Below, one piece after another: positions 887 through 42,813 of a stretch of DNA of 64,000 bases; position 1 is the first letter of the stretch, and each line of letters starts with the position of its first letter. The DNA comes from an uncultured Gammaproteobacteria bacterium. GTDB lineage: Bacteria; Patescibacteriota; Patescibacteriia; UBA1558; 2-01-FULL-52-15. The stretch is from assembly GCA_964402565.1 (NCBI GenBank), contig CAYOCJ010000001.1, forward strand, positions 416,079 to 480,078, read 5' to 3'. The translations under genes were made by a program, and so were the position numbers. The notes below the pieces were generated by a model. The model ran no database searches, had not been told where the DNA came from, and saw only the letters and a list, made by a program, of their open reading frames with translations.

Positions 887-1026
887 CATGGCTGGCTTGG
901 AGGGACTATGTACGAACTGTTAGATGGGAGGACATGTTCCCTTATCCGAGCGTAGATTTGCAGCAGATGCAGGATTTACTGACGCTTGCTCGCTAATATC
1001 GTAGCATTTTCAAGCCCTTCTTGGGT

Positions 1027-1054
1027 AGGCGCTCAATGCGCCGATTTTTTATTT
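1027..1054 (+). terminator. GC hairpin + T-run (second terminator-like element in pyrG-distal noncoding region)
   Basis: ggcgc-tcaat-gcgcc followed by gattttttatttt. It sits ~190 bp downstream of the pyrG stop and no convincing CDS lies between. Confidence 0.4.
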
Positions 1055-1355
1055 TGGGTGGTGGGTGTATGGGAATCGCGCCCGCGACTTTTCGCGGGGA
1101 CACCCTCACCAAGTTGGTATATTCCTGGGCTAAACCTTTCTTAGCTATAGGTATAGGTAATACAAAAGGGTGTATACGGATTGTAAGTGAATAGCATGGG
1201 AGTAGTAACAAAATAACTGCATGCTATCCAATACTACATGTATGTATCTGTCTTTTCATGTCGATTGATAACAAAAAACATGAAGTAGCATGACAAGGGG
1301 GTATCACCCTGTCTCTCTTGCAGAGTTTCGGCAGAGGAAAGTCAGAGCTTGCAGA

Positions 1356-1808
1356 CTAACTCCGCTTGGCTTGTTCTTTCTTCAGTCGTCGCCAGTCGTA
1401 GAAATCTATCTTCTTATTCTCTTCAACAAGAAAGACGTAGAGGTTTAGCTTATCTGCAACATTATAAGGCAACCGTCTTACTATCAAATCACGGAAGTTA
1501 GCTGGGAATCCGACACCGTATTTATAGCCGTATTTGTAGCCACGCTTTCCATCACTCTTCATCCGAGTGATTATTTGTCCAAGTGCCAGGTTGAAGTTTA
1601 CTTCACGATGCGAACGTGGATATTTCGCAGTTTTTGAAGCGTCACCCTTACACTCAATAAGCCAGTAGCGAGCGAACTTGTTGTTCCGCACTTTGATGTC
1701 CACGCCGTGCTCAGTCAGACCTTTACTTCGAAGGTTTCGGCTCCATCCTTTTCTGAATAGATACTCAATGATGTTGTCTTGAACAAACTTTTCTGTGAGT
1801 AATTTCAT
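1356..1808 (-). CDS. standalone PD-(D/E)xK nuclease-domain protein resembling the HsdR N-terminal (Mrr-cat-like) domain
   Basis: 150 aa. GVDIKV ... LIECKGD matches the D...ExK catalytic core. The N-terminal xxL(F)RKGW motif parallels LLQKSGW at the N-terminus of the adjacent HsdR. There is a 5-nt gap to the upstream hsdMS stop, so it is probably co-transcribed. Confidence 0.6.
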   Translation of the reverse strand: MKLLTEKFVQDNIIEYLFRKGWSRNLRSKGLTEHGVDIKVRNNKFARYWLIECKGDASKTAKYPRSHREVNFNLALGQIITRMKSDGKRGYKYGYKYGVGFPANFRDLIVRRLPYNVADKLNLYVFLVEENKKIDFYDWRRLKKEQAKRS

Positions 1809-1813
1809 GGTAA

Positions 1814-4231
1814 TTATTCACCCCAAATATCTACTATCTTCTTCTTTATCTTGTCTTCGTAAATATCAATCATTTTTCTTGCAGATAATGCGTGTGCTTG
1901 TTCATCTTTTACTTGGGCAACGATTCTTTTTTGAACCTCCAGGCTTGGTAGAGGGATAGAGAGGTGCTTTAGTGCGTTTCCATTGAATTGAGGTTGTACT
2001 CCGCCAGTCACTAATACTTTTGCCTGATTCCAATAATCACTCGTTTGAGCAAATGCCCAATAATACTCTGGAAGAATCTTGGTCGTGTCGAGAATAAGAC
2101 GAATAAGGAATGAAGCAAACACTGCGGGATATTCTTCGCTAAAAATCATTGTCTTACCGTATGTTGCTCCCGTGCGAGCAACCAAGACGTCACCTGCATG
2201 TAATTGATATGGTTGTGATGCTTTAGTGATATTCACATATTTTTCGCCGTCTGCCCTCAAGTGTCCGTCGTTGCTGATGTCAGTAATTCGGATGTATCGA
2301 GCATCTCCTTTAGATTTTGCTGTTTCAGTGTATCCATATTCCATTTTGGCAATCTCGCCCAACTTCTTCCTTTCCCATGACGCATCAAATCCTATAGATG
2401 GCTTGTGATGTTCAATAACTTGATTAGCTCCGTCAATAACTTTCTGATAACTATCGAACTCTGCAATAATTTGCCTCTGCACATCAATTGGAGGTACGGG
2501 AATCCTAATTTTCGCCAAATCTTTTGGGTAAACATGAGGTTGTCCACCGCCTTGTTGGAAACTGTACAGATATTCCTGTTTTGCTTTTAGTAGGTAATAA
2601 GCAAAACGAGTCAATAAAATTGCTTCGTTTTTTGACTGAATCGTTGTGCAATCAGAAGCAAAGATTGGCTCAGAGAAGTAATTTACGAATCCTGCATATG
2701 CACCAGACGCACTTACTGTTATCACATTTCCAGCTCGATTCGAGACATCGTGGTAATAAGCAGGTTGCTGTCCACCAGCAATCACAGGAACGTTACCGCT
2801 CGCGGTCTGCTTTTTTGTAATCGCACTACCTTTTCTAACTTCACACAAATCATTTATCGCTACGTCGTCCCACTGTCTATTCACAATTTTTAGTGGGAGG
2901 TACTTTTCTCCAGTGAGATTAGATTCGTCATTATCTGCAATTTTCTTTTTGCTTATCGTCCAAGCAAATAAGTTATCCTTTTTTATGGAGATTCTTTTTT
3001 TGTTCAATATCGATTCCTTGTGGGCTTTCAGTATCTCAAGTGCGTGTGGTAAGTCGTTTTTGTCTATAGGTTTTCTTTGTGCGCCCAAATCAAAACCATC
3101 GTTGAGAACTTTCAAGAAAAGTATCTCCTTCGATTGTTTTGATAACTGATTGTCGAAGAACAGTATGCTGGTTTTGACTCCCGCATATGGATTGAATACG
3201 CCGCCTGGCAAAGATACAACAGCGTAAAGTCCATCTGCGACAAGCAACTTGCGCAATTGTTTATATGCACCAGCAGACTGGAAAATAACTCCTTCAGGAA
3301 CGATAATGCCCGCACGTCCTTTGTTGTTGAGATGTTCCATTATGTAATCAACAAACAAAACTTCGGCGCGGTTCGCTTGCACCATAAAACGTTTGTGAGG
3401 TCGAATGCCACCTTTCGGACTCATAAACGGAGGATTTGCCATCATTACATCAAAACGTTCATTCCAGCGTTCGTCACTCGTGAGAGTATCGTATTCGTGA
3501 ATACTGGGACTTGGTGAGCCATGCAAGTACATGTTTACGAGAGAAAGTTTGACCATATCTGGTGAAATATCGTACCCAGTAAGATTACTCATCAAGCGTT
3601 TCTTTTCGTCTGGCGTGAGCCGTTTCTTCTCGTTTGCTTTCAGAATATGTTTGTAGGCAGAAATAAGAAACCCTGCCGTGCCGCAAGCTGGGTCAAGGAT
3701 AGTTTCATCTTTTTTGGGGTCTATTACTTCAACAATAAAATCGATAATGTGGCGCGGTGTGCGAAATTGCCCTGCTTCACCTTGAGACCCCAAAATTGAA
3801 AGTAAGTATTCAAAAGCATCGCCCAAGTTTTCGCTGTGGTCGTATGAAAATCCGTTTATCTCCTTCAAGAAAAGGTTGAGTGTTTGCGGGTCACGGTATG
3901 GTAAGTAGGCATCCTTGAAGACATCACGGAAGAGTTGCGGCAGATGGGGGTTGGTGGACATCTTTCTAATTGCTTCCTCATAAAGATTCAAGCGTTCTTG
4001 TCCGCCAAGTTTCGCATCCATCAATTTACTCCAACTGTATTTACCAAATCCATTCGTGAAGAATTGTGTCTTGCCTTTTGGTAGAGAAGCGGATTGCAAA
4101 TCCATATCATCCATAAACTTATAGATGAGTGCAGTTGTAATCTGTTCAACTTGCGCTTTTGGGTCAGGAACTTTACCCACGAGAATATCCCGCGCTGTAT
4201 CAATTTTTCGTTTTGTTTCTTGTGTCAACAT
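1814..4231 (-). CDS. hsdM: Type I-like restriction-modification methyltransferase fused to specificity subunit (HsdM::HsdS single polypeptide, 805 aa)
   Basis: HsdM N-domain, SAM motif DPACGTAGFL and N6-adenine motif IV NPPF. The C-terminal ~400 aa carries two target-recognition domains separated by HsdS-type conserved central and C-terminal repeats (GGQPHVYPKDLAKIRIPVPP ... GGVQPQFNGNALKHLSIPLP). It is a continuous ORF. Confidence 0.85.
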   Translation of the reverse strand: MLTQETKRKIDTARDILVGKVPDPKAQVEQITTALIYKFMDDMDLQSASLPKGKTQFFTNGFGKYSWSKLMDAKLGGQERLNLYEEAIRKMSTNPHLPQLFRDVFKDAYLPYRDPQTLNLFLKEINGFSYDHSENLGDAFEYLLSILGSQGEAGQFRTPRHIIDFIVEVIDPKKDETILDPACGTAGFLISAYKHILKANEKKRLTPDEKKRLMSNLTGYDISPDMVKLSLVNMYLHGSPSPSIHEYDTLTSDERWNERFDVMMANPPFMSPKGGIRPHKRFMVQANRAEVLFVDYIMEHLNNKGRAGIIVPEGVIFQSAGAYKQLRKLLVADGLYAVVSLPGGVFNPYAGVKTSILFFDNQLSKQSKEILFLKVLNDGFDLGAQRKPIDKNDLPHALEILKAHKESILNKKRISIKKDNLFAWTISKKKIADNDESNLTGEKYLPLKIVNRQWDDVAINDLCEVRKGSAITKKQTASGNVPVIAGGQQPAYYHDVSNRAGNVITVSASGAYAGFVNYFSEPIFASDCTTIQSKNEAILLTRFAYYLLKAKQEYLYSFQQGGGQPHVYPKDLAKIRIPVPPIDVQRQIIAEFDSYQKVIDGANQVIEHHKPSIGFDASWERKKLGEIAKMEYGYTETAKSKGDARYIRITDISNDGHLRADGEKYVNITKASQPYQLHAGDVLVARTGATYGKTMIFSEEYPAVFASFLIRLILDTTKILPEYYWAFAQTSDYWNQAKVLVTGGVQPQFNGNALKHLSIPLPSLEVQKRIVAQVKDEQAHALSARKMIDIYEDKIKKKIVDIWGE

Positions 4232-4233
4232 AA

Positions 4234-6750
4234 TTACATGTATGCGTTTAGAGAAACGTAGTCCTTCACGTATTCTGGTATGCGCTCAATCCAGCCATTT
4301 AGTTCCTGGAGGTCAGCAAATGTGAGTTTTGGATTGGTTGCAAGTCGGGTGTATTCTCCCTTTTCGATAATGTCTCTGATTTCGTTGTCAGTAATATACG
4401 CCTTCAAGTAGTTCTTGATTGGCATAACATATTTATTTTCGGGTTTATTGATGGCAACGAATTGCTCAAACTCATTTTCAAGCAAGTCGTCCTTTGATTT
4501 GAAGTTAGTGATGCCGCCGAATGCCTTTTCAATAAACTCGCGGATGCCGATACGACGGTCTGCTTTCACTGATTTACGCAACTTCTCCAGGCTGAAATAA
4601 TCTTCGGGCTTATTGAAGATATTGTCTTTCACGTAGTTCTCGATGGTTGCCAAGTCTCCCTCTTCGTATTTTTGCTTGATGAACGAATCTTCTTTGACTA
4701 CCGCTTCAAACCTTTCGAAAAGTTTTCGGTCTATTTTCATCCCTTCAACACCCACTGCTGTTTCAGAAAACGTCTTGAGAGGGTCAGGTTGAGTGATAAT
4801 GATTTCATCAATGTTCACACCTTCGCCACCCTCTTCACCTCCAGTACCTATCTTTGGTGGAAGTCGCAAAACTTCATCATAGTCATACTTCTCTTCAAAG
4901 TATTCACAGTTAGCAAAGAAATCAAAAAGCTTGAACTTATCTTTTGGCACAGAAGCGGTCTCAAGCTCTCCATCATCTTTTTGTTGATGATTGAAGGTGT
5001 ATTTACGCGTACCTCGTCCTTTTATTTGAATAAAATCAGTTGGCGAGAATATAGGGCGCATTAGGCACACGTTCAAAATATCCTCACAATCATATCCAGT
5101 AGTCATCATCCCCACAGTTACACAAACACGAGTTTTGCTTGAAAGATAACCTTCAAGAAACTTAGAGTGTCCGTTGAGGTTATTGTTTGCAAAACTGATA
5201 GTGAAGGATTGTGCATCTGAAATGTTTGAGCTGACTTGCACGGCAAAATCCGAGTTATATTTCCCAGGATAAAGTTGTTCGGCAAACTGGTTGAGTATCT
5301 GAGTAACTTTTGAAGCGTGTTTTTGGCTTACACAGAACACAATGGTTTTCCCAATTTCTCCAGTAATGGGGTCTTTGATTGCATTCTCAACAAAAGTTTT
5401 GCAGAAAATCTGATTAGTCTTATCAGAAAAAAACTTTCTCTCAAAATCTGTATGGAAGAAGGATTGCTCTTCTTCTTTTCCTTCCTCGTCTTCAACCATC
5501 ATCGCGTAACCCTTTTCTGAAAGAAGCTCTGTGGTTATTTCTGTGCGAGCATCAGCAACCACTGGATTTACCAGATAGCCATCTTTGACTCCATCAAGCA
5601 ACGTGTAGCGAAAAGTTGGCTCGCCAGTTTCGCAACCAAAAGTTTTATATGTATCAAAAAGCTGGCGACGTTCCCACGCACGAGGGTCTTTGGAGTTCAA
5701 TTTTTCTGGGTCTATACCTTTCAGATAGTTTTTTGGTGTTGCTGTAAGACCAAGCTTATAGCCCACAAAGTATTCGAACACCGCACGACTGTTGCCACCA
5801 ATAGAACGATGGGCTTCGTCGGAAATAAGAAGGTCAAAATCCGTTGGAGAAAAAAGTTTCTGATACTTATTATTGAAAGAAAGACTTTGAACAGTAGAGA
5901 CGACAATTTCCGCCTTGCGCCAGTCATCCTTATTCTCTTTATAGACGACAGCAGTGTAATCCTTCGAGAGCCATTTCTTGAAGTTCTTTGCTGCCTGGTC
6001 TTCCAGTTCAAGACGGTCAACGAGGAATAAGATGCGCTTGGCATTCCCTGACTTCAAGAACAATTTGATGACTGCTGCCGAAACCAGCGTTTTGCCCGTC
6101 CCTGTTGCCATTTCAAATAGGAAACGGTCATTGCCACCTCCTGCGGCTTCCTGAAGGGCTTTTATGGCACGTAGCTGGTATGGGCGAAGTAGTTTTAGTC
6201 CTTCCGCATCAATAAAACTTTGCTTTTGAGAGTCATCTGACCATCGAGGGTCGTTTTGATAATCCGCTTTCTGCGTAAGTGCAATGTAGTCACTTTCAAC
6301 TTGCTCTTCTGCTAATCGTTTTGAATCAGGTTTGAATGCTTCAAAATGCTGGAGTGAGTCTGGTGTTGGAAATTGAATAATAACAGTAGGATTGCCGCGC
6401 TCTAAATCCCAGAAGTAATGCAAATTGCCGTTTGAAAGAATAACAAAGCGTACATTGAGTGATTGCGCATAGCGCCGCGCCTGTTCTTTTCCATCAAGAG
6501 GGTCTTTGTCTTCAGACTTTGCCTCAAGCACCACATACGGAAAGCCCTTATCGTCGGAAAGAAGAAAATCTATAAATCCGTTCTTGGTTTTTTCGAAGTT
6601 ATTACCAAGTTCATCAATTCCTGGTTTAGTCAGTTTTACGTTTGGCTCAAGAGTGATGTTTGCCTTACCATTTTCGTCGTCGAAAAACCTCCAGCCTGAC
6701 TTCTGGAGAAGGTCATTTATTTTTATTCGTGCTTTAGCTTCTTTTTGCAT
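4234..6750 (-). CDS. hsdR: Type I restriction enzyme R subunit-like protein (N-terminal PD-(D/E)xK nuclease + SF2 helicase), short 838-aa form
   Basis: N-terminal nuclease motif IDFLL..VVLEAKS. Helicase motif I MATGTGKT, motif II LISDEAHR and motif VI QIKGRGTRK. The C-terminal helical region and the 3-nt gap to hsdMS suggest co-transcription. Confidence 0.85.
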   Translation of the reverse strand: MQKEAKARIKINDLLQKSGWRFFDDENGKANITLEPNVKLTKPGIDELGNNFEKTKNGFIDFLLSDDKGFPYVVLEAKSEDKDPLDGKEQARRYAQSLNVRFVILSNGNLHYFWDLERGNPTVIIQFPTPDSLQHFEAFKPDSKRLAEEQVESDYIALTQKADYQNDPRWSDDSQKQSFIDAEGLKLLRPYQLRAIKALQEAAGGGNDRFLFEMATGTGKTLVSAAVIKLFLKSGNAKRILFLVDRLELEDQAAKNFKKWLSKDYTAVVYKENKDDWRKAEIVVSTVQSLSFNNKYQKLFSPTDFDLLISDEAHRSIGGNSRAVFEYFVGYKLGLTATPKNYLKGIDPEKLNSKDPRAWERRQLFDTYKTFGCETGEPTFRYTLLDGVKDGYLVNPVVADARTEITTELLSEKGYAMMVEDEEGKEEEQSFFHTDFERKFFSDKTNQIFCKTFVENAIKDPITGEIGKTIVFCVSQKHASKVTQILNQFAEQLYPGKYNSDFAVQVSSNISDAQSFTISFANNNLNGHSKFLEGYLSSKTRVCVTVGMMTTGYDCEDILNVCLMRPIFSPTDFIQIKGRGTRKYTFNHQQKDDGELETASVPKDKFKLFDFFANCEYFEEKYDYDEVLRLPPKIGTGGEEGGEGVNIDEIIITQPDPLKTFSETAVGVEGMKIDRKLFERFEAVVKEDSFIKQKYEEGDLATIENYVKDNIFNKPEDYFSLEKLRKSVKADRRIGIREFIEKAFGGITNFKSKDDLLENEFEQFVAINKPENKYVMPIKNYLKAYITDNEIRDIIEKGEYTRLATNPKLTFADLQELNGWIERIPEYVKDYVSLNAYM

Positions 6751-6779
6751 TGTTCATTTTCATCTTCATTGTGGTGAGC

Positions 6780-6965
6780 CTACTTTCTCTTCTTCTTCCG
6801 AAAGCTGGACTCAATAAAGCCGTCGAGGTCTTCTTTACGAAAACGCCAACGACCTATCCACGCTGCTTTTATTTTTTCTTCGTGAAGATAACGGAACAAA
6901 GTCCGCTCTCCAACGTCGAGATATTTAGCAGCTTCCTGCAAAGTCAGAAACTCTTTTCTTTTCAT
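6780..6965 (-). CDS. small helix-turn-helix DNA-binding protein, excisionase/AlpA (HTH_17)-like; candidate controller or recombination directionality factor
   Basis: 61 aa. LTLQEAAKYLDVGERTLFRYLHEEKI is a typical Xis/AlpA-family HTH. It is the first gene of the minus-strand operon and ends 29 nt upstream of the hsdR start. Confidence 0.55.
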   Translation of the reverse strand: MKRKEFLTLQEAAKYLDVGERTLFRYLHEEKIKAAWIGRWRFRKEDLDGFIESSFRKKKRK

Positions 6966-7042
6966 ACTTTGTAATACTTATAGTGTAGCCGTTTTTTGAC
7001 ATCATGGCAAGAAATGGCAAGTTCTGATAAAATGATTTTACG

Positions 7043-7756
7043 ATGTATATGGGAATGACTTTAGAAGAAAAAGATGCTTTGCTCGCCAGTGTTATTGAAG
7101 AACACTATGCGACTCAAAAACATAATCCTACCTGTGTGCCTGTTGTCCATCTTCGAGACAAAGGTTTTGATGTTTCTGATACTCGCAATGGTTTGTGGCG
7201 TCTAAAAGAAAAAGGTGTGGTAAAAAGTTATCAACACGGCTGGGGTTTTCTTGAGCTTCAGAACAGTAAAAAGGTTTTTGTAAGGACAAGAACTGAAGAG
7301 CCTGATGACGGTAGCGACGATTTTGAGGCATACAGCGTTGAAATTGATACTAAAAAGCTTGAGCACACTGCATCCCAAAAACCAAACAGAGCGGCAAAAA
7401 AAGAAGTAGTTGATTTTGATACTCTAAATGCCGCTATTCACTTCGGAAAGAAGCATTACACATTCCAAAAAGGACGTGATAATCAAGTACGCTTGAAATT
7501 GTTTAGAGACCTCTGGGAGAGAAGAGAGGTCATCTATAATAATAAAGTAACGAGAAAAGGAGAACCCTTCCCTCCAGGTGCAATAGCCACACGAATTGGC
7601 TTGGTTGATAGTGCGCAAGGTTTTGAAAGAAACAAGGAAGCAAAGAGCAAGTTGGACACACTAATAAAAAACCTGGAGACAAACCTTCAAAGAGGAGGTA
7701 TTCCAATACGCATATACAAAAGAGGTGGAATCAAACTAATAGCAGGCGCGAAATAA
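7043..7756 (+). CDS. hypothetical protein (island cargo)
   Basis: 237-aa ORF with a good coding look and no recognisable motifs. It is followed by a terminator. Confidence 0.5.
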   Translation: MYMGMTLEEKDALLASVIEEHYATQKHNPTCVPVVHLRDKGFDVSDTRNGLWRLKEKGVVKSYQHGWGFLELQNSKKVFVRTRTEEPDDGSDDFEAYSVEIDTKKLEHTASQKPNRAAKKEVVDFDTLNAAIHFGKKHYTFQKGRDNQVRLKLFRDLWERREVIYNNKVTRKGEPFPPGAIATRIGLVDSAQGFERNKEAKSKLDTLIKNLETNLQRGGIPIRIYKRGGIKLIAGAK

Positions 7757-7768
7757 GCTTCAAATAGA

Positions 7769-7800
7769 GCACCCCCGAATAGACGGGAGTGTTTTGTTTT
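7769..7800 (+). terminator. intrinsic terminator after ORF 7043-7756
   Basis: gcaccccc-gaataga-cgggagtg stem with one mismatch, followed by ttttgtttt. A second hairpin gggtgca-ttattt-tgcaccc lies at 7814-7833. Confidence 0.5.
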
Positions 7801-7868
7801 GTGGAAAAAATAAGGGTGCATTATTTTGCACCCCTCTTCCAAATAAGACACTCAGTCAGAATGTGTGC

Positions 7869-8111
7869 ATGGAAGATAGAAATGTAGAAGTAAGCGATTT
7901 GGGTCTGGCGTCGCTCTTGGCGACACTCCAGTTTGAGTTGGTCGGTCTGGAGCGCGTGAATACGAAGCGCATAAACTTCGTCTTCAAATACGCTGACGGA
8001 ATCCAAAGAGTTATAGATGATTTTTGGGCTGATGCCAAAGTAACTGTGCAAGCACAGAGTCTTTTTCATACACAAAAAACACTCAAGAATCGTCTTTACG
8101 CCCTCAAGTAG
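7869..8111 (+). CDS. small hypothetical protein (island cargo; first of three tightly coupled small ORFs)
   Basis: The ORF track gives 7794-8111, but the 5' part overlaps the terminator hairpins. The internal Met at 7869 (MEDRNVEV...) is the preferred start. The stop abuts the next ATG. Confidence 0.4.
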   Translation: MEDRNVEVSDLGLASLLATLQFELVGLERVNTKRINFVFKYADGIQRVIDDFWADAKVTVQAQSLFHTQKTLKNRLYALK

Positions 8112-8270
8112 ATGGAACTCACAGATGTACAACTCAAGCTACTTCGAGAGCCGTTTGAGGAAGCAGGGGCACTCAAAGGACTTACCTATGAAGAAATAAA
8201 AAAACTTCTTGAAGAGATTGCAGAAGTGTACATCGTATTGGCTAACGAAAATCTGCTTGCAAAGAAATGA
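8112..8270 (+). CDS. 52-aa helical hypothetical protein (island cargo)
   Basis: The ATG follows the previous stop directly. The stop overlaps the next gene's ATG (ATGA), so it is translationally coupled on both sides. It is below the ORF-track size cutoff. Confidence 0.35.
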   Translation: MELTDVQLKLLREPFEEAGALKGLTYEEIKKLLEEIAEVYIVLANENLLAKK

Positions 8271-8866
8271 ATATGAAAAAGAAAACGAAAATCCCACTCT
8301 ATACAACTGAAGTAGAACCTGAAGACTATACACCGTTTTCAATGGTGTTCGCCTCCGTTTGGAAAGCCTACGATGCAGGTGAAATCAATCCTGAAAAGCT
8401 ACTGCTTTTTCTCAACCTCTATCGAGGTGTGAACCCCCACAACGGGTATGGATTTACGAGTTATGCCGAGCTGTGCCTACGTCTCAAACGAAGGTCAACA
8501 AAACTGGACGAGAATGCAATGAATAAGCTCATGGTGTCATTGCGAGATGATAACCACCTTGTGTGGTTTCCCCAGCATAGCGGAAGCAGAGAGTTTCCTT
8601 ACGTTTTAGCAAAGTTCAAGTTGGCTCAAATAAACAGCAAGGACAAGGAGAAATGGATAGACATCAAGCAGTATTTTCAGAGCAAAAATCAGAGCATCAG
8701 CAGAGCTTATGAACCTTCTTTACCCAGCACTCCACCAGAACCTCCACCGAGGCAACCTATGTCAGAGCAGAGGTTAGAAAGGTCGAATGGTGAATCAATT
8801 ACAAGCATAAAAGAGGATTTGGATAGACGTTATGGCAGACCTCCCCAGACGAATACCGAGTCATAG
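8267..8866 (+). CDS. hypothetical protein (island cargo; Pro-rich acidic C-terminal tail)
   Basis: 199-aa ORF coupled to the upstream small ORF. No recognisable catalytic motif. Confidence 0.5.
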   Translation: MNMKKKTKIPLYTTEVEPEDYTPFSMVFASVWKAYDAGEINPEKLLLFLNLYRGVNPHNGYGFTSYAELCLRLKRRSTKLDENAMNKLMVSLRDDNHLVWFPQHSGSREFPYVLAKFKLAQINSKDKEKWIDIKQYFQSKNQSISRAYEPSLPSTPPEPPPRQPMSEQRLERSNGESITSIKEDLDRRYGRPPQTNTES

Positions 8867-8894
8867 ACATAGACAGATTCGATTATAAAAAATT

Positions 8895-9209
8895 ATGAAA
8901 TCGACTAATCGTTTCCAAATAAGTGAAAGGCATCCGAGCGAATATCCAATAAACAACAACGAAGATGCTCACTGTGTTGATATAGCTCTCGCACTCGGAG
9001 AATCGGATATGAGGTATATCCTTGCACGTCGGCAGCAACTTGGGATGCAGGCAATCAGTGAAGCATACTCGGTTGTGAAGGATGAGATTCGCAAAGGAAA
9101 ATGCCAGTCTCCTGGAAGGCTCTTCAACTACTTGCTTACTCAAAAACTCGAAGAAAAGAAAAAGTCTAAATCTCTGGGGTCAAGAGAACCGCCAATAGAC
9201 GATGGTTGA
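8895..9209 (+). CDS. hypothetical protein (island cargo)
   Basis: 104-aa ORF, no motifs recognised. Confidence 0.4.
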   Translation: MKSTNRFQISERHPSEYPINNNEDAHCVDIALALGESDMRYILARRQQLGMQAISEAYSVVKDEIRKGKCQSPGRLFNYLLTQKLEEKKKSKSLGSREPPIDDG

Positions 9210-9331
9210 CCCCATGTAAGTTATGTTCTTTGCACCTTGATAACTGGACTTGCCACAACCTGCCATAGTGCTATACTTATATTGCTACCTACAAGTTTGA
9301 ATATGTGCACGGGGTCTCTGCTTTTTTAGCT

Positions 9332-9395
9332 CCAATTGTGGGCGAAAAGGGGCAGTCGAGACCTCCGCAATTGGTTGCCTCGTGCAATTCAATCT
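9332..9395. promoter_or_regulatory. repeated CAATTG-type motifs / imperfect inverted repeat in the 260-bp intergenic region upstream of the recombinase gene pair
   Basis: ccaattgtgg (9332-9341) and ccgcaattgg (9365-9374) form a 10-bp imperfect inverted repeat. A third tgcaattcaat copy follows. This is a candidate operator or recombination site. Confidence 0.3.
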
Positions 9396-9469
9396 TGTGG
9401 GTAGCAGGCTCCTCGGCTGTCCCTTTTCGTGTTTATAAATAACCAGGGACGGGTCGGAGCGAATAAGTT

Positions 9470-9945
9470 ATGGCAACGCTACCACCCACATGCACGTCTC
9501 ACGGATACAAAGATAGCTCTGGAAAAACCCAGGTCGTGTTTAGTTCGGATTGCTACTATCCAGGAAGTAACTGCATCCTCACAAACGACCAGTGTGTCTC
9601 TACATTCAAAGAAACTGGTTGCAAGGGTGGAGATGGACAGTATGCGTGTGCGCAAGCCTATTACCTCAAGCAACAAAGCCAGGTAAAGCCACAAGCTCAA
9701 CCTGTGATAATTACAAATACTGGTCAAGAAAATGCGGAGTTGAAAACACAACTTCAAGAAATGCAGAAACAAATCGAGACGTTACAGTCAAAACAAGCTA
9801 CGGCTACCACAACGGTGCCGCCAGCCCAAACTACACCCCTATTTGAAAACCCAGTCGTTCCATATTCGATTTTGGGAATACTCATAGTAGGAATCGTGGT
9901 GTTGATGAAGATGAAAATCATTACAATCTCATCTAACAAACAACC

Positions 9946-9949
<4 letters not shown>
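9470..9949 (+). CDS. Cys-rich, coiled-coil, C-terminally membrane-anchored hypothetical protein, translationally coupled to the serine recombinase
   Basis: 159 aa with 8 Cys in the first 60 residues, a Q/T-rich coiled coil and a C-terminal TM helix (ILGILIVGIVVLM). The stop overlaps the recombinase ATG (ATGA). Confidence 0.5.
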
Positions 9950-11567
<1,618 letters not shown>

Positions 11568-11654
11568 ATAAAACAGAATTACGATACTATGAATAGTACT
11601 GAGCGTCAATTCAACAGCTACAAAAAATAGTAACATTGTGGTATAGTACGCTAT

Positions 11655-29727: not shown

Positions 29728-30094
29728 GCTTTAGTTATTTTGATGATCGCCGCGGTATTGGGTATACTGATACCGAGGAGGAAAGTCCGAACACCAATAT
29801 AAGAGTAGTCGATAACGTCGACCCTTCTGCATCCATAGTGCAGAAGAGGACCAGTGCAACAGAAAGTAAACCGCTCCGGCCTCGCGTCGGAGTAAGGGTG
29901 AAACCGTGAGGTAAGAGCTCACGCACGCATGCAGTGATGTATGCGTAGGGTAAACTCTACTCGGTGCAAAGCCAAATAGGCCCCGATCTTCGGGGCGGGT
30001 AGGCTGCTTGATCCTGCAGGCAACTGCAGGACTAGATAGATGATCATAGCTCTCGCAAGAGAGAACAGAATTCGGCTTATAGAATAATTGAAGC
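29728..30094 (+). ncRNA. rnpB: RNase P RNA, bacterial type A
   Basis: GAGGAGGAAAGTCCG (P4 5' strand), CCAGTGCAACAGAAAGTAAACCGC, AGTAAGGGTGAAACCGTGAGGTAAGAGCTCACG, GGGTAAACTCTACTCGGTGCAAAGCCAAATAGG and GGTAGGCTGCTTGA...CTAGATAGATGA...ACAGAATTCGGCTTAT align block-for-block with E. coli M1 RNA. P1 is paired by hand. No CDS in this region. Confidence 0.8.
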
Positions 30095-30103
30095 ATTGTT
30101 AGA

Positions 30104-42737: not shown

Positions 42738-42813
42738 TGGAGCCGCCGGTGGGAATCGAACCCACGACCTACGGTTTACGATACCGTCGCTCTACCGACT
42801 GAGCTACAGCGGC
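42738..42813 (-). tRNA. tRNA-Thr (anticodon CGT)
   Basis: Hand-folded: acceptor GCCGCUG/CGGCGGC, D-arm GCUC-AGUCGGUA-GAGC, anticodon stem ACGGU with loop AUCGUAA, T-arm GUGGG-UUCGAUU-CCCAC, discriminator U, CCA. Confidence 0.85.

Follow-up and report, generated by a model that had tools for sequence, protein, structure and literature searches.

The 64,000-nucleotide stretch of DNA analysed here (the window; contig CAYOCJ010000001.1, positions 416,079 to 480,078) carries a restriction-modification (R-M) locus of four genes on its minus strand, and this locus is likely to be an ordinary two-gene Type I R-M system of the 'Type IMS' kind that travels as cargo of an integrative island. The two core genes encode an HsdR protein of 838 amino acids (aa) (R; 4234..6750) and an 805-aa protein (M~S; 1814..4231) in which HsdM is fused to a complete HsdS. 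They are preceded by the gene of a 61-aa HTH_17 protein (6780..6965), which would belong to the island backbone, and followed by the gene of a 150-aa PD-(D/E)xK protein (the small protein; 1356..1808), which would be a portable passenger. All four open reading frames (ORFs) lie on the minus strand where the initial annotation had placed them, and hidden Markov model (HMM) scans of these ORFs agreed with the domain content that it had given. The intergenic gaps, which had been described as 3-5 nucleotides (nt) throughout, were read at the junctions as 29 nt between the helix-turn-helix (HTH) gene and R, 2 nt between R and M~S, and 5 nt between M~S and the small gene. Given the common strand and the short gaps, the single operon proposed previously is still probable and co-transcription of the four genes is plausible. 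A promoter-like site (TTGCCA-17-TACACT; 6982..7010, minus strand), which is a consensus match only, is located just 5' of the HTH gene in a divergent intergenic region common to the island backbone genes. It may act as the promoter of the HTH-R-M~S-small genes; the region contains as many such sites as would be expected from shuffled sequence.

The R protein was found to contain the Pfam families HSDR_N/HSDR_N_2, ResIII (E = 7e-40) and Helicase_C, and it matched the PADLOC REase_I model with E = 5e-56. Its nuclease residues are D61...E76-A-K78 followed by the QxxxY motif in the form QARRY90, and the motifs of its superfamily 2 (SF2) motor are Walker A GTGKT217, DEAH311, TAT336 and QIKGR575. 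Judged by these residues both the nuclease and the translocase motif sets are complete and R would therefore need no helper nuclease. The top curated model for R is the NCBIfam EcoAI/FtnUII HsdR model NF046051, where R scored 247 bits; because this is below the cutoff of 550 bits, R falls outside that equivalog, yet its sequence relates it to the Type IB (EcoAI-like) HsdR proteins. The closest relative in the PDB is 3h1t, a fragment of HsdR from V. vulnificus (E = 3e-34). The earlier description of R as short is not borne out by its relatives, since the EcoAI/FtnUII model has 768 positions and R homologues adjoining M~S genes have 830-870 aa.

The M~S protein contains an N6_Mtase domain (Pfam, E = 6e-55) followed by two Methylase_S stretches (E = 6e-44), in agreement with the proposed fusion of M and S with two target-recognition domains (TRDs) in 805 aa. 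The HsdM part (aa 1-450; 2882..4231, minus strand as are all parts of the gene) consists of an N-terminal HsdM-type helical region and a gamma-class N6-adenine methyltransferase (MTase), and the PADLOC model MTase_I (PDLC03021) aligns end to end with aa 1-451 (E = 5e-101). The S-adenosylmethionine-binding motif I (DPACGT) was observed at position 180 and the catalytic motif IV (NPPF) at position 266, while no nuclease family occurs among the Pfam matches to the protein. The S part begins with the variable TRD1 (aa 455-575; 2507..2869), which corresponds to the Methylase_S stretch at 452-600, and continues with a central conserved helix (aa 576-615; 2387..2506). TRD2 (aa 620-758; 1958..2374), located in the second Methylase_S stretch and matched by PADLOC Specificity_I at 616-773, is followed by a C-terminal conserved helix (aa 760-805; 1817..1954). 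In the AlphaFold2 (AF2) model of M~S (pLDDT 78.9) the two helices span residues 582-608 and 764-803, respectively. In structural comparisons this model came closest to the 'intact MTase' of V. vulnificus (7eew) and next to classical HsdM and HsdS structures, and the Type IIB enzyme BsaXI and the Type IIG enzyme BpuSI gave far weaker scores than the Type I MTases.

A fusion created by a sequencing error could be ruled out because the identical 805-aa protein is present in two independent assemblies and more than 8000 homologues contain both domains; the best of those listed are full-length, with about 800 aa and a query coverage of 100%. For homologues of 624-632 aa the coverage is only 76%, which is consistent with these being one-TRD forms. 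No second MTase, S or ResIII gene, including a free hsdM, was found in the 64-kb window. We noticed that the parts of M~S differ widely in their conservation. Compared with the closest relatives (comparison loci L003, L047, L049 and L050), the M part is 68-90% identical, the central helix 35-70% and TRD2 55-81%, whereas the identity of TRD1 is 20-26%. Because TRD1 is this divergent while the flanking parts remain conserved, the alignments indicate that TRD1 has been swapped recently between relatives and that the half-site specificity therefore differs within one island lineage. Swapping of TRDs is the classical Type I pattern.

Relatives of M~S were sampled at 84 loci, 80 from metagenomes and four from genomes or assemblies. 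Of the 78 loci that could be evaluated (neighbourhood counts here and below are lower bounds), 63 have an R homologue as the immediate upstream neighbour of M~S, 11 have it with a single gene in between and four have none. R and M~S thus form a very common two-gene unit, and the natural fused-subunit kind of Type I system is abundant in the databases, especially in bacteria of the candidate phyla. The architecture had been proposed to be undescribed, but it matches the published 'Type IMS' definition, which calls for a fusion of HsdM with a one- or two-TRD HsdS and for a separate HsdR (Roberts et al. 2012, PMC3510504); in the window M~S is a single ORF with two TRDs beside a separate HsdR. The fused arrangement is therefore already known, having been described conceptually and through engineering. 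An engineered EcoKI MSFusion methylates DNA and, with HsdR alone, restricts phage in vivo (Roberts et al. 2012, PMC3510504), and the MSfus protein of S. aureus CC398-1 is an active methyltransferase that gives an active endonuclease with HsdR (Bower et al. 2018, PMC6158711). The literature term 'hsdMS' was considered as a further precedent and set aside, as it means two adjacent genes, for example P. aeruginosa PA2735/PA2734.

The features of Type I systems that are present at this locus are the nuclease and SF2 motifs of HsdR, the gamma-class MTase motifs and the two TRDs with their conserved helices. Three separate R, M and S subunits are not present, M and S being one 805-aa ORF. Type IIB and Type IIG enzymes have their nuclease on the MTase polypeptide and are devoid of an ATP-driven translocase. 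Assignment to Type IIB (BcgI/BsaXI/AloI) was rejected as the N-terminus of M~S is HsdM-like and not a nuclease, and a full HsdR motor is encoded 2 nt upstream. The same outcome was reached for Type ISP (LlaGI/LlaBIII), where nuclease, translocase, MTase and one TRD are in one chain, since R in the window is separate and there are two TRDs. The methylation-associated defence system (MADS) was also rejected: the NCBIfam models of MAD1, MAD2 and MAD5 scored 33.5, 92.4 and 52.4 bits against cutoffs of 80, 720 and 400 bits, respectively, and no other MAD genes were found among the ORFs of the locus.

The small protein had been described as a PD-(D/E)xK nuclease resembling the N-terminal domain of HsdR. 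Its PD-(D/E)xK nature is supported by the signature E6...D37...E52-x-K54, which is invariant across the family, and by a restriction-endonuclease fold with an alpha-beta-beta-beta-alpha-beta core. The resemblance to HsdR holds for the fold, which is common to both, but not for the sequence, where no similarity was detected and hhalign gave a probability of 0.4% for the N-terminus of the operon's own HsdR. No match to the small protein was found in Pfam at E <= 0.01 (HSDR_N/HSDR_N_2 included), NCBIfam, PADLOC or PHROGs; a lone sub-threshold match was to the restriction-fold domain NOV_C/DUF3883 with a score of 16.6 against a cutoff of 22.1. Neither a single-sequence nor a profile search of the PDB returned anything significant. 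XisH (PDB 2OKF) is a fold match, and membership in that family was rejected because there is no significant sequence similarity and no paired XisI gene.

At least 413 homologues of the small protein were found, in both bacteria and archaea, and members from distant phyla are still 66-86% identical. When 1.84 billion representatives were searched with a profile, 256 clusters were returned, almost all of which are stand-alone proteins of 130-160 aa. Ten longer relatives were scanned, of which seven contain HARE-HTH and one contains RAMA/DUF4357; both kinds of domain are usual companions of stand-alone restriction nucleases. The matches listed (150 of the 256 clusters, and the ten longer forms scanned) included none in which the small domain is fused with an MTase or S domain. 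Since the plasmid search gave no match and only one match was found in 2.9 million viral contigs, the sequence searches argue that this is not a phage or plasmid gene family. The small protein is probably a catalytically active, independent nuclease of the restriction fold.

The small nuclease had also been proposed to serve M~S in trans, and its distribution contradicts this. The small gene was found at no M~S locus of the 84 sampled, not even in L047, the nearest relative of the island, where M~S is 76% and R 86% identical and the position after M~S is occupied by a 444-aa protein with a FokI cleavage domain (L047:9436-10770). Conversely, 44 genome loci of the small protein from Patescibacteria, Gammaproteobacteria, Acidobacteriota, Methylomirabilota, Planctomycetes, Omnitrophota and Nitrososphaeria contain the HTH-R-M~S-small order only once more, in L003. 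Elsewhere the gene just upstream, which often overlaps the small gene by 4 nt, belongs to unrelated systems such as a Type III-like Mod/Res pair (L002), a Type II-like pair of a Dam-class MTase and a DUF6996/6997/7226 protein (L004), an N6_N4 MTase (L005), a CBASS pair (L009), DndB (L031) or DUF4238 (L036). At L006 and L021 it is preceded by genes with no family match near housekeeping genes, with an amino-acid permease two genes upstream in the former and the operon of the small gene coming after DnaK in the latter. Over the 44 loci an MTase gene was observed within 5 kb in 16, a ResIII gene in eight and a serine recombinase within 10 kb in ten. The small protein is 81-83% identical where it follows Type III-like and Type II-like modules, which have no M~S. 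What L002 and L004 share with the window is confined to the small gene (81-82% for the protein), the recombinase and an HTH that has diverged (36-39%), and the nucleotide conservation spans exactly the small gene from start codon to stop.

The slot 3' of M~S is itself variable. Across the relatives it holds DUF4145, AAA_15/21/SMC-type ATPases, RadC, SDH protease, HEPN and KAP proteins, and further GmrSD_N, reverse transcriptase, RNase HII-like, EC042_2821 and FokI-like proteins. It fits the well-known tendency of defence genes to gather within and next to Type I loci, which has been shown for TgvAB in VPI-2; PrrC is an extra gene within the EcoprrI locus. Directly 3' of the small gene we noticed an OLD-family AAA_15+TOPRIM protein in L002 (L002:10447-12096) and an AAA_13/SMC-type ATPase in L004 (L004:10457-13054), and with these genes downstream of it the small gene can also occupy an internal position in a defence cluster of several systems. 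Two proteins without a Pfam family were also noticed near the small gene. One, of 155 aa (cluster c10), co-occurs with it in three otherwise different loci (L004:14822-15289, L019:1930-2397 and L043:3711-4178). The other, of 785-797 aa (cluster c24; L003:10450-12807 and L023:5300-7690), adjoins it, after the small gene in one locus and before it in the other.

The island that carries the locus lies in the window at 900-11570, between pyrG (18-833) and a tRNA-Gln gene (11494..11567, minus strand) which is the probable integration site and right island boundary. A large serine recombinase with Resolvase and Recombinase domains (9946..11526, plus strand; PHROG integrase, E = 1e-81) has the last ~11 codons of its gene inside the tRNA-Gln gene on the opposite strand, and a homologue was observed at the equivalent position in L002, L003, L004 and L047. 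After the recombinase the backbone comprises genes of 159, 104, 199 and 52 aa, DUF5659 and a 237-aa gene, and then the divergent HTH-R-M~S-small genes, the last of which faces pyrG. The serine recombinase, DUF5659, the 233/237-aa gene and HTH_17 are common to the window and L047. No att direct repeats above chance were found between the tRNA-Gln and pyrG ends; as the cores used by serine recombinases are very short, this negative is uninformative about the left boundary. The 520-nt spacer between pyrG and the small gene gave nothing credible in an Rfam scan. A hairpin directly 3' of pyrG (844-895, gaaaaataccaccaactgaagttgatggtatttttc), which had only spurious weak microRNA matches in Rfam, is probably the pyrG terminator. 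The window also contains ordinary housekeeping RNAs, namely a bacterial class A RNase P RNA (29731-30095; 259.6 bits) and tRNA-Thr(CGT) (42738-42813).

The 61-aa HTH protein matches HTH_17 (Pfam, E = 1.4e-14), the NCBIfam 'excise' model (43.6 bits against a cutoff of 28.8) and the PHROG 'excisionase and transcriptional regulator'. With an iterative HMM seeded on the window protein, 50 M~S loci were searched and only two had a homologue 5' of R, and HTH_17 was rejected as a core component of R + M~S. Homologues do precede the Type III module of L002 and the Type II-like module of L004 on related serine-recombinase islands. Because the HTH gene is rare at M~S loci yet recurs before different R-M modules, it is probably a part of the island backbone, acting as a regulator or excisionase-like factor outside the R-M core.

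Island edges are a recurrent location of the small gene. In L017-L019 it converges on a serine recombinase gene, either a few nt apart or slightly overlapping, and it adjoins one in L037. L019 and L043, which were compared at L019:2487-4288 and L043:4268-4480, have a common synteny of an Na/Ca exchanger, a 270-aa gene, the 155-aa gene and the small gene. At this chromosomal position L043 has a truncated small gene of ~70 aa followed by dihydrodipicolinate synthase (DHDPS), whereas in L019 it is complete and is followed 2 nt later by a convergent serine recombinase and a Type I module with the order M-S-278aa-R. As the truncated copy in L043 contrasts with the full copy and inserted island in L019, the small gene marks an insertion point or boundary of an island.

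Several other readings of the locus were considered. In the hybrid of Type I and split Type IIB that had been proposed, the small protein docks on M~S as a nuclease in trans, like BcgI or AloI, and works beside HsdR or replaces it. In favour of this reading, only 5 nt separate the small gene from M~S, with which it is probably co-translated, the small protein has invariant catalytic residues, other nuclease-type genes come after M~S in some relatives and the gene order recurs once, in L003. Against these points stand the absence of the small gene from every sampled M~S locus, its high identity behind modules with no M~S, the lack of fusions among the matches listed, the complete nuclease of HsdR, the structural likeness of M~S to Type I MTases with BsaXI far weaker, and the engineered M-S fusions that restrict in vivo with HsdR alone. 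The hybrid is therefore very improbable: the MTase chain has no nuclease, the locus does encode an ATP motor, and the partnership of M~S with the small protein is not conserved. A new subtype with four obligate components, requiring both the HTH and the small protein, would account for the common strand, the short gaps, the one promoter-like site 5' of the HTH gene and the identical order in L003, and the R-M module does lie between the HTH and small genes in the window, L003, L002 and L004. However, the bracketed module differs in type (I, III and II-like), so that neither gene is tied to R + M~S, and the M~S loci generally have neither the HTH gene 5' of R nor the small gene. In addition, the HTH is 36-45% identical where the small protein is 81-82% identical and the two have not evolved as a unit. 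We consider this subtype scarcely credible.

A role of the small protein in the mobile element, whether as an accessory of the XisH kind, as a directionality factor or as a gene that the large serine recombinase uses as its boundary or target, is unlikely, though its claim is better than that of either reading above. Within the window no island gene lies beyond the small gene, which would adjoin the recombinase if the element circularised; the convergent and adjacent recombinases in L017-L019 and L037, the L043-L019 pair, the XisH fold match and the recombinase within 10 kb in 10 of 44 loci all point the same way. However, the other 34 loci have no recombinase within 10 kb and there is no conserved XisI-like partner gene. 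The invariant, full catalytic tetrad suggests a real nuclease, and the fusions to HARE-HTH and RAMA point to restriction-type enzymes.

Some observations also weigh against a two-gene Type I system with a passenger. The 5-nt gap and a Shine-Dalgarno-like GGGGTGA 5' of the small gene fit its co-expression with M~S, and by these signals a functional link between the two is conceivable. Nuclease-type genes recur after M~S, although their families differ: a FokI cleavage domain in L047, a DUF3644/EC042_2821 restriction endonuclease in L048 and an RNase HII-like protein in L050. This could reflect a general need for an extra nuclease and not chance accretion. The neighbourhood counts were obtained from metagenome-assembled genomes and metagenome contigs with crude ORF calls and phmmer seeds and are lower bounds for this reason. 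Finally, the purified EcoKI fusion required extra free HsdM in vitro (Roberts et al. 2012, PMC3510504), while no free hsdM exists in the window, and this natural M~S enzyme would have to assemble without it.

We nevertheless favour the two-gene Type I system, from which we infer the following enzymology and regulation. A serine-recombinase integrative island between pyrG and tRNA-Gln would carry the locus as defence cargo, its core being a Type IB-like HsdR together with a single chain made up of HsdM and a complete two-TRD HsdS. By analogy with classical Type I enzymes, M~S would read a bipartite target through TRD1 and TRD2 and methylate adenines with its gamma-class NPPF active site. At unmethylated targets M~S would recruit HsdR, which would then translocate DNA with ATP and cut at a distance through its own PD-(D/E)xK domain, and swaps of TRD1 would diversify the specificity as they do in that class. 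The HTH_17 protein may be a regulator of the cargo operon or an excisionase-like factor from the island backbone. The small gene would be a co-transcribed, portable passenger in the variable 3' slot of many defence operons and at island edges. Its product is most likely a separate nuclease effector, of a type IV-like or back-up kind, and not a subunit of HsdM~S.

For annotation, a fused HsdM~HsdS beside hsdR should be read as a two-gene Type I ('Type IMS') system, and a trailing gene should not be assumed to be a subunit. The thousands of natural R + M~S systems that have no separate hsdM provide material for the question of stoichiometry raised by the EcoKI fusion. The small nuclease family, with its invariant tetrad, its lack of a family assignment and its places at the 3' ends of defence operons and at island boundaries, is a candidate for a screen in defence or island biology. 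A wider proposal, which we hold to be doubtful, is that the small protein represents a portable conserved nuclease family behind R-M systems of Types I, II-like and III and at island edges and, separately, that a natural two-TRD M~S assembles without free HsdM. The small gene could then be a defence gene of a new kind that acts on its own, or its product could serve different R-M systems as an accessory or back-up nuclease. The M~S enzyme would have to assemble from the fusion, for instance as (M~S)2 in which one S part is idle.

In comparison with known systems, the locus resembles the 'Type IMS' fusions in having HsdM joined in frame to a complete two-TRD HsdS with HsdR separate. The engineered examples are mutagenised Type IA and S. 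aureus systems, whereas the fusion in the window is natural and its R is Type IB-like; unlike the purified EcoKI fusion, to which HsdM was added in vitro, it has no free hsdM nearby. The V. vulnificus YJ016 'intact MTase' (PDB 7EEW), which is the top structural and the second-best sequence match to M~S, at an identity of only ~21%, is likewise a natural single chain with a Type I MTase domain and a TRD, but it has one TRD in 638 aa where M~S has two in one chain. This protein reportedly acts as a dimer, and the shared strain name suggests that 3H1T and 7EEW come from one V. vulnificus system. The EcoAI family (Type IB) has an R of similar size with the same layout of a nuclease plus an SF2 motor, but its M and S are encoded by separate genes. 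With the Type IIB/IIG enzymes BcgI, BsaXI, AloI and BpuSI, M~S has in common a gamma-class MTase with Type I-like TRDs, and bipartite recognition is expected as in those enzymes; it differs from them in that it has no nuclease domain and is accompanied by a full HsdR.

The small protein is unrelated to GmrSD or PrrC. The arrangement of its gene can be compared with that of TgvAB in V. cholerae VPI-2, which is described as a type IV system embedded within a Type I locus (PMC11411939). Both are cases of an unrelated nuclease or effector gene that is co-located and co-oriented with hsd genes and that also occurs outside Type I clusters. Set beside these systems, what stays mildly interesting in the window is a natural two-TRD fusion that would have to assemble without free HsdM, and a highly conserved, uncharacterised family of small nucleases.

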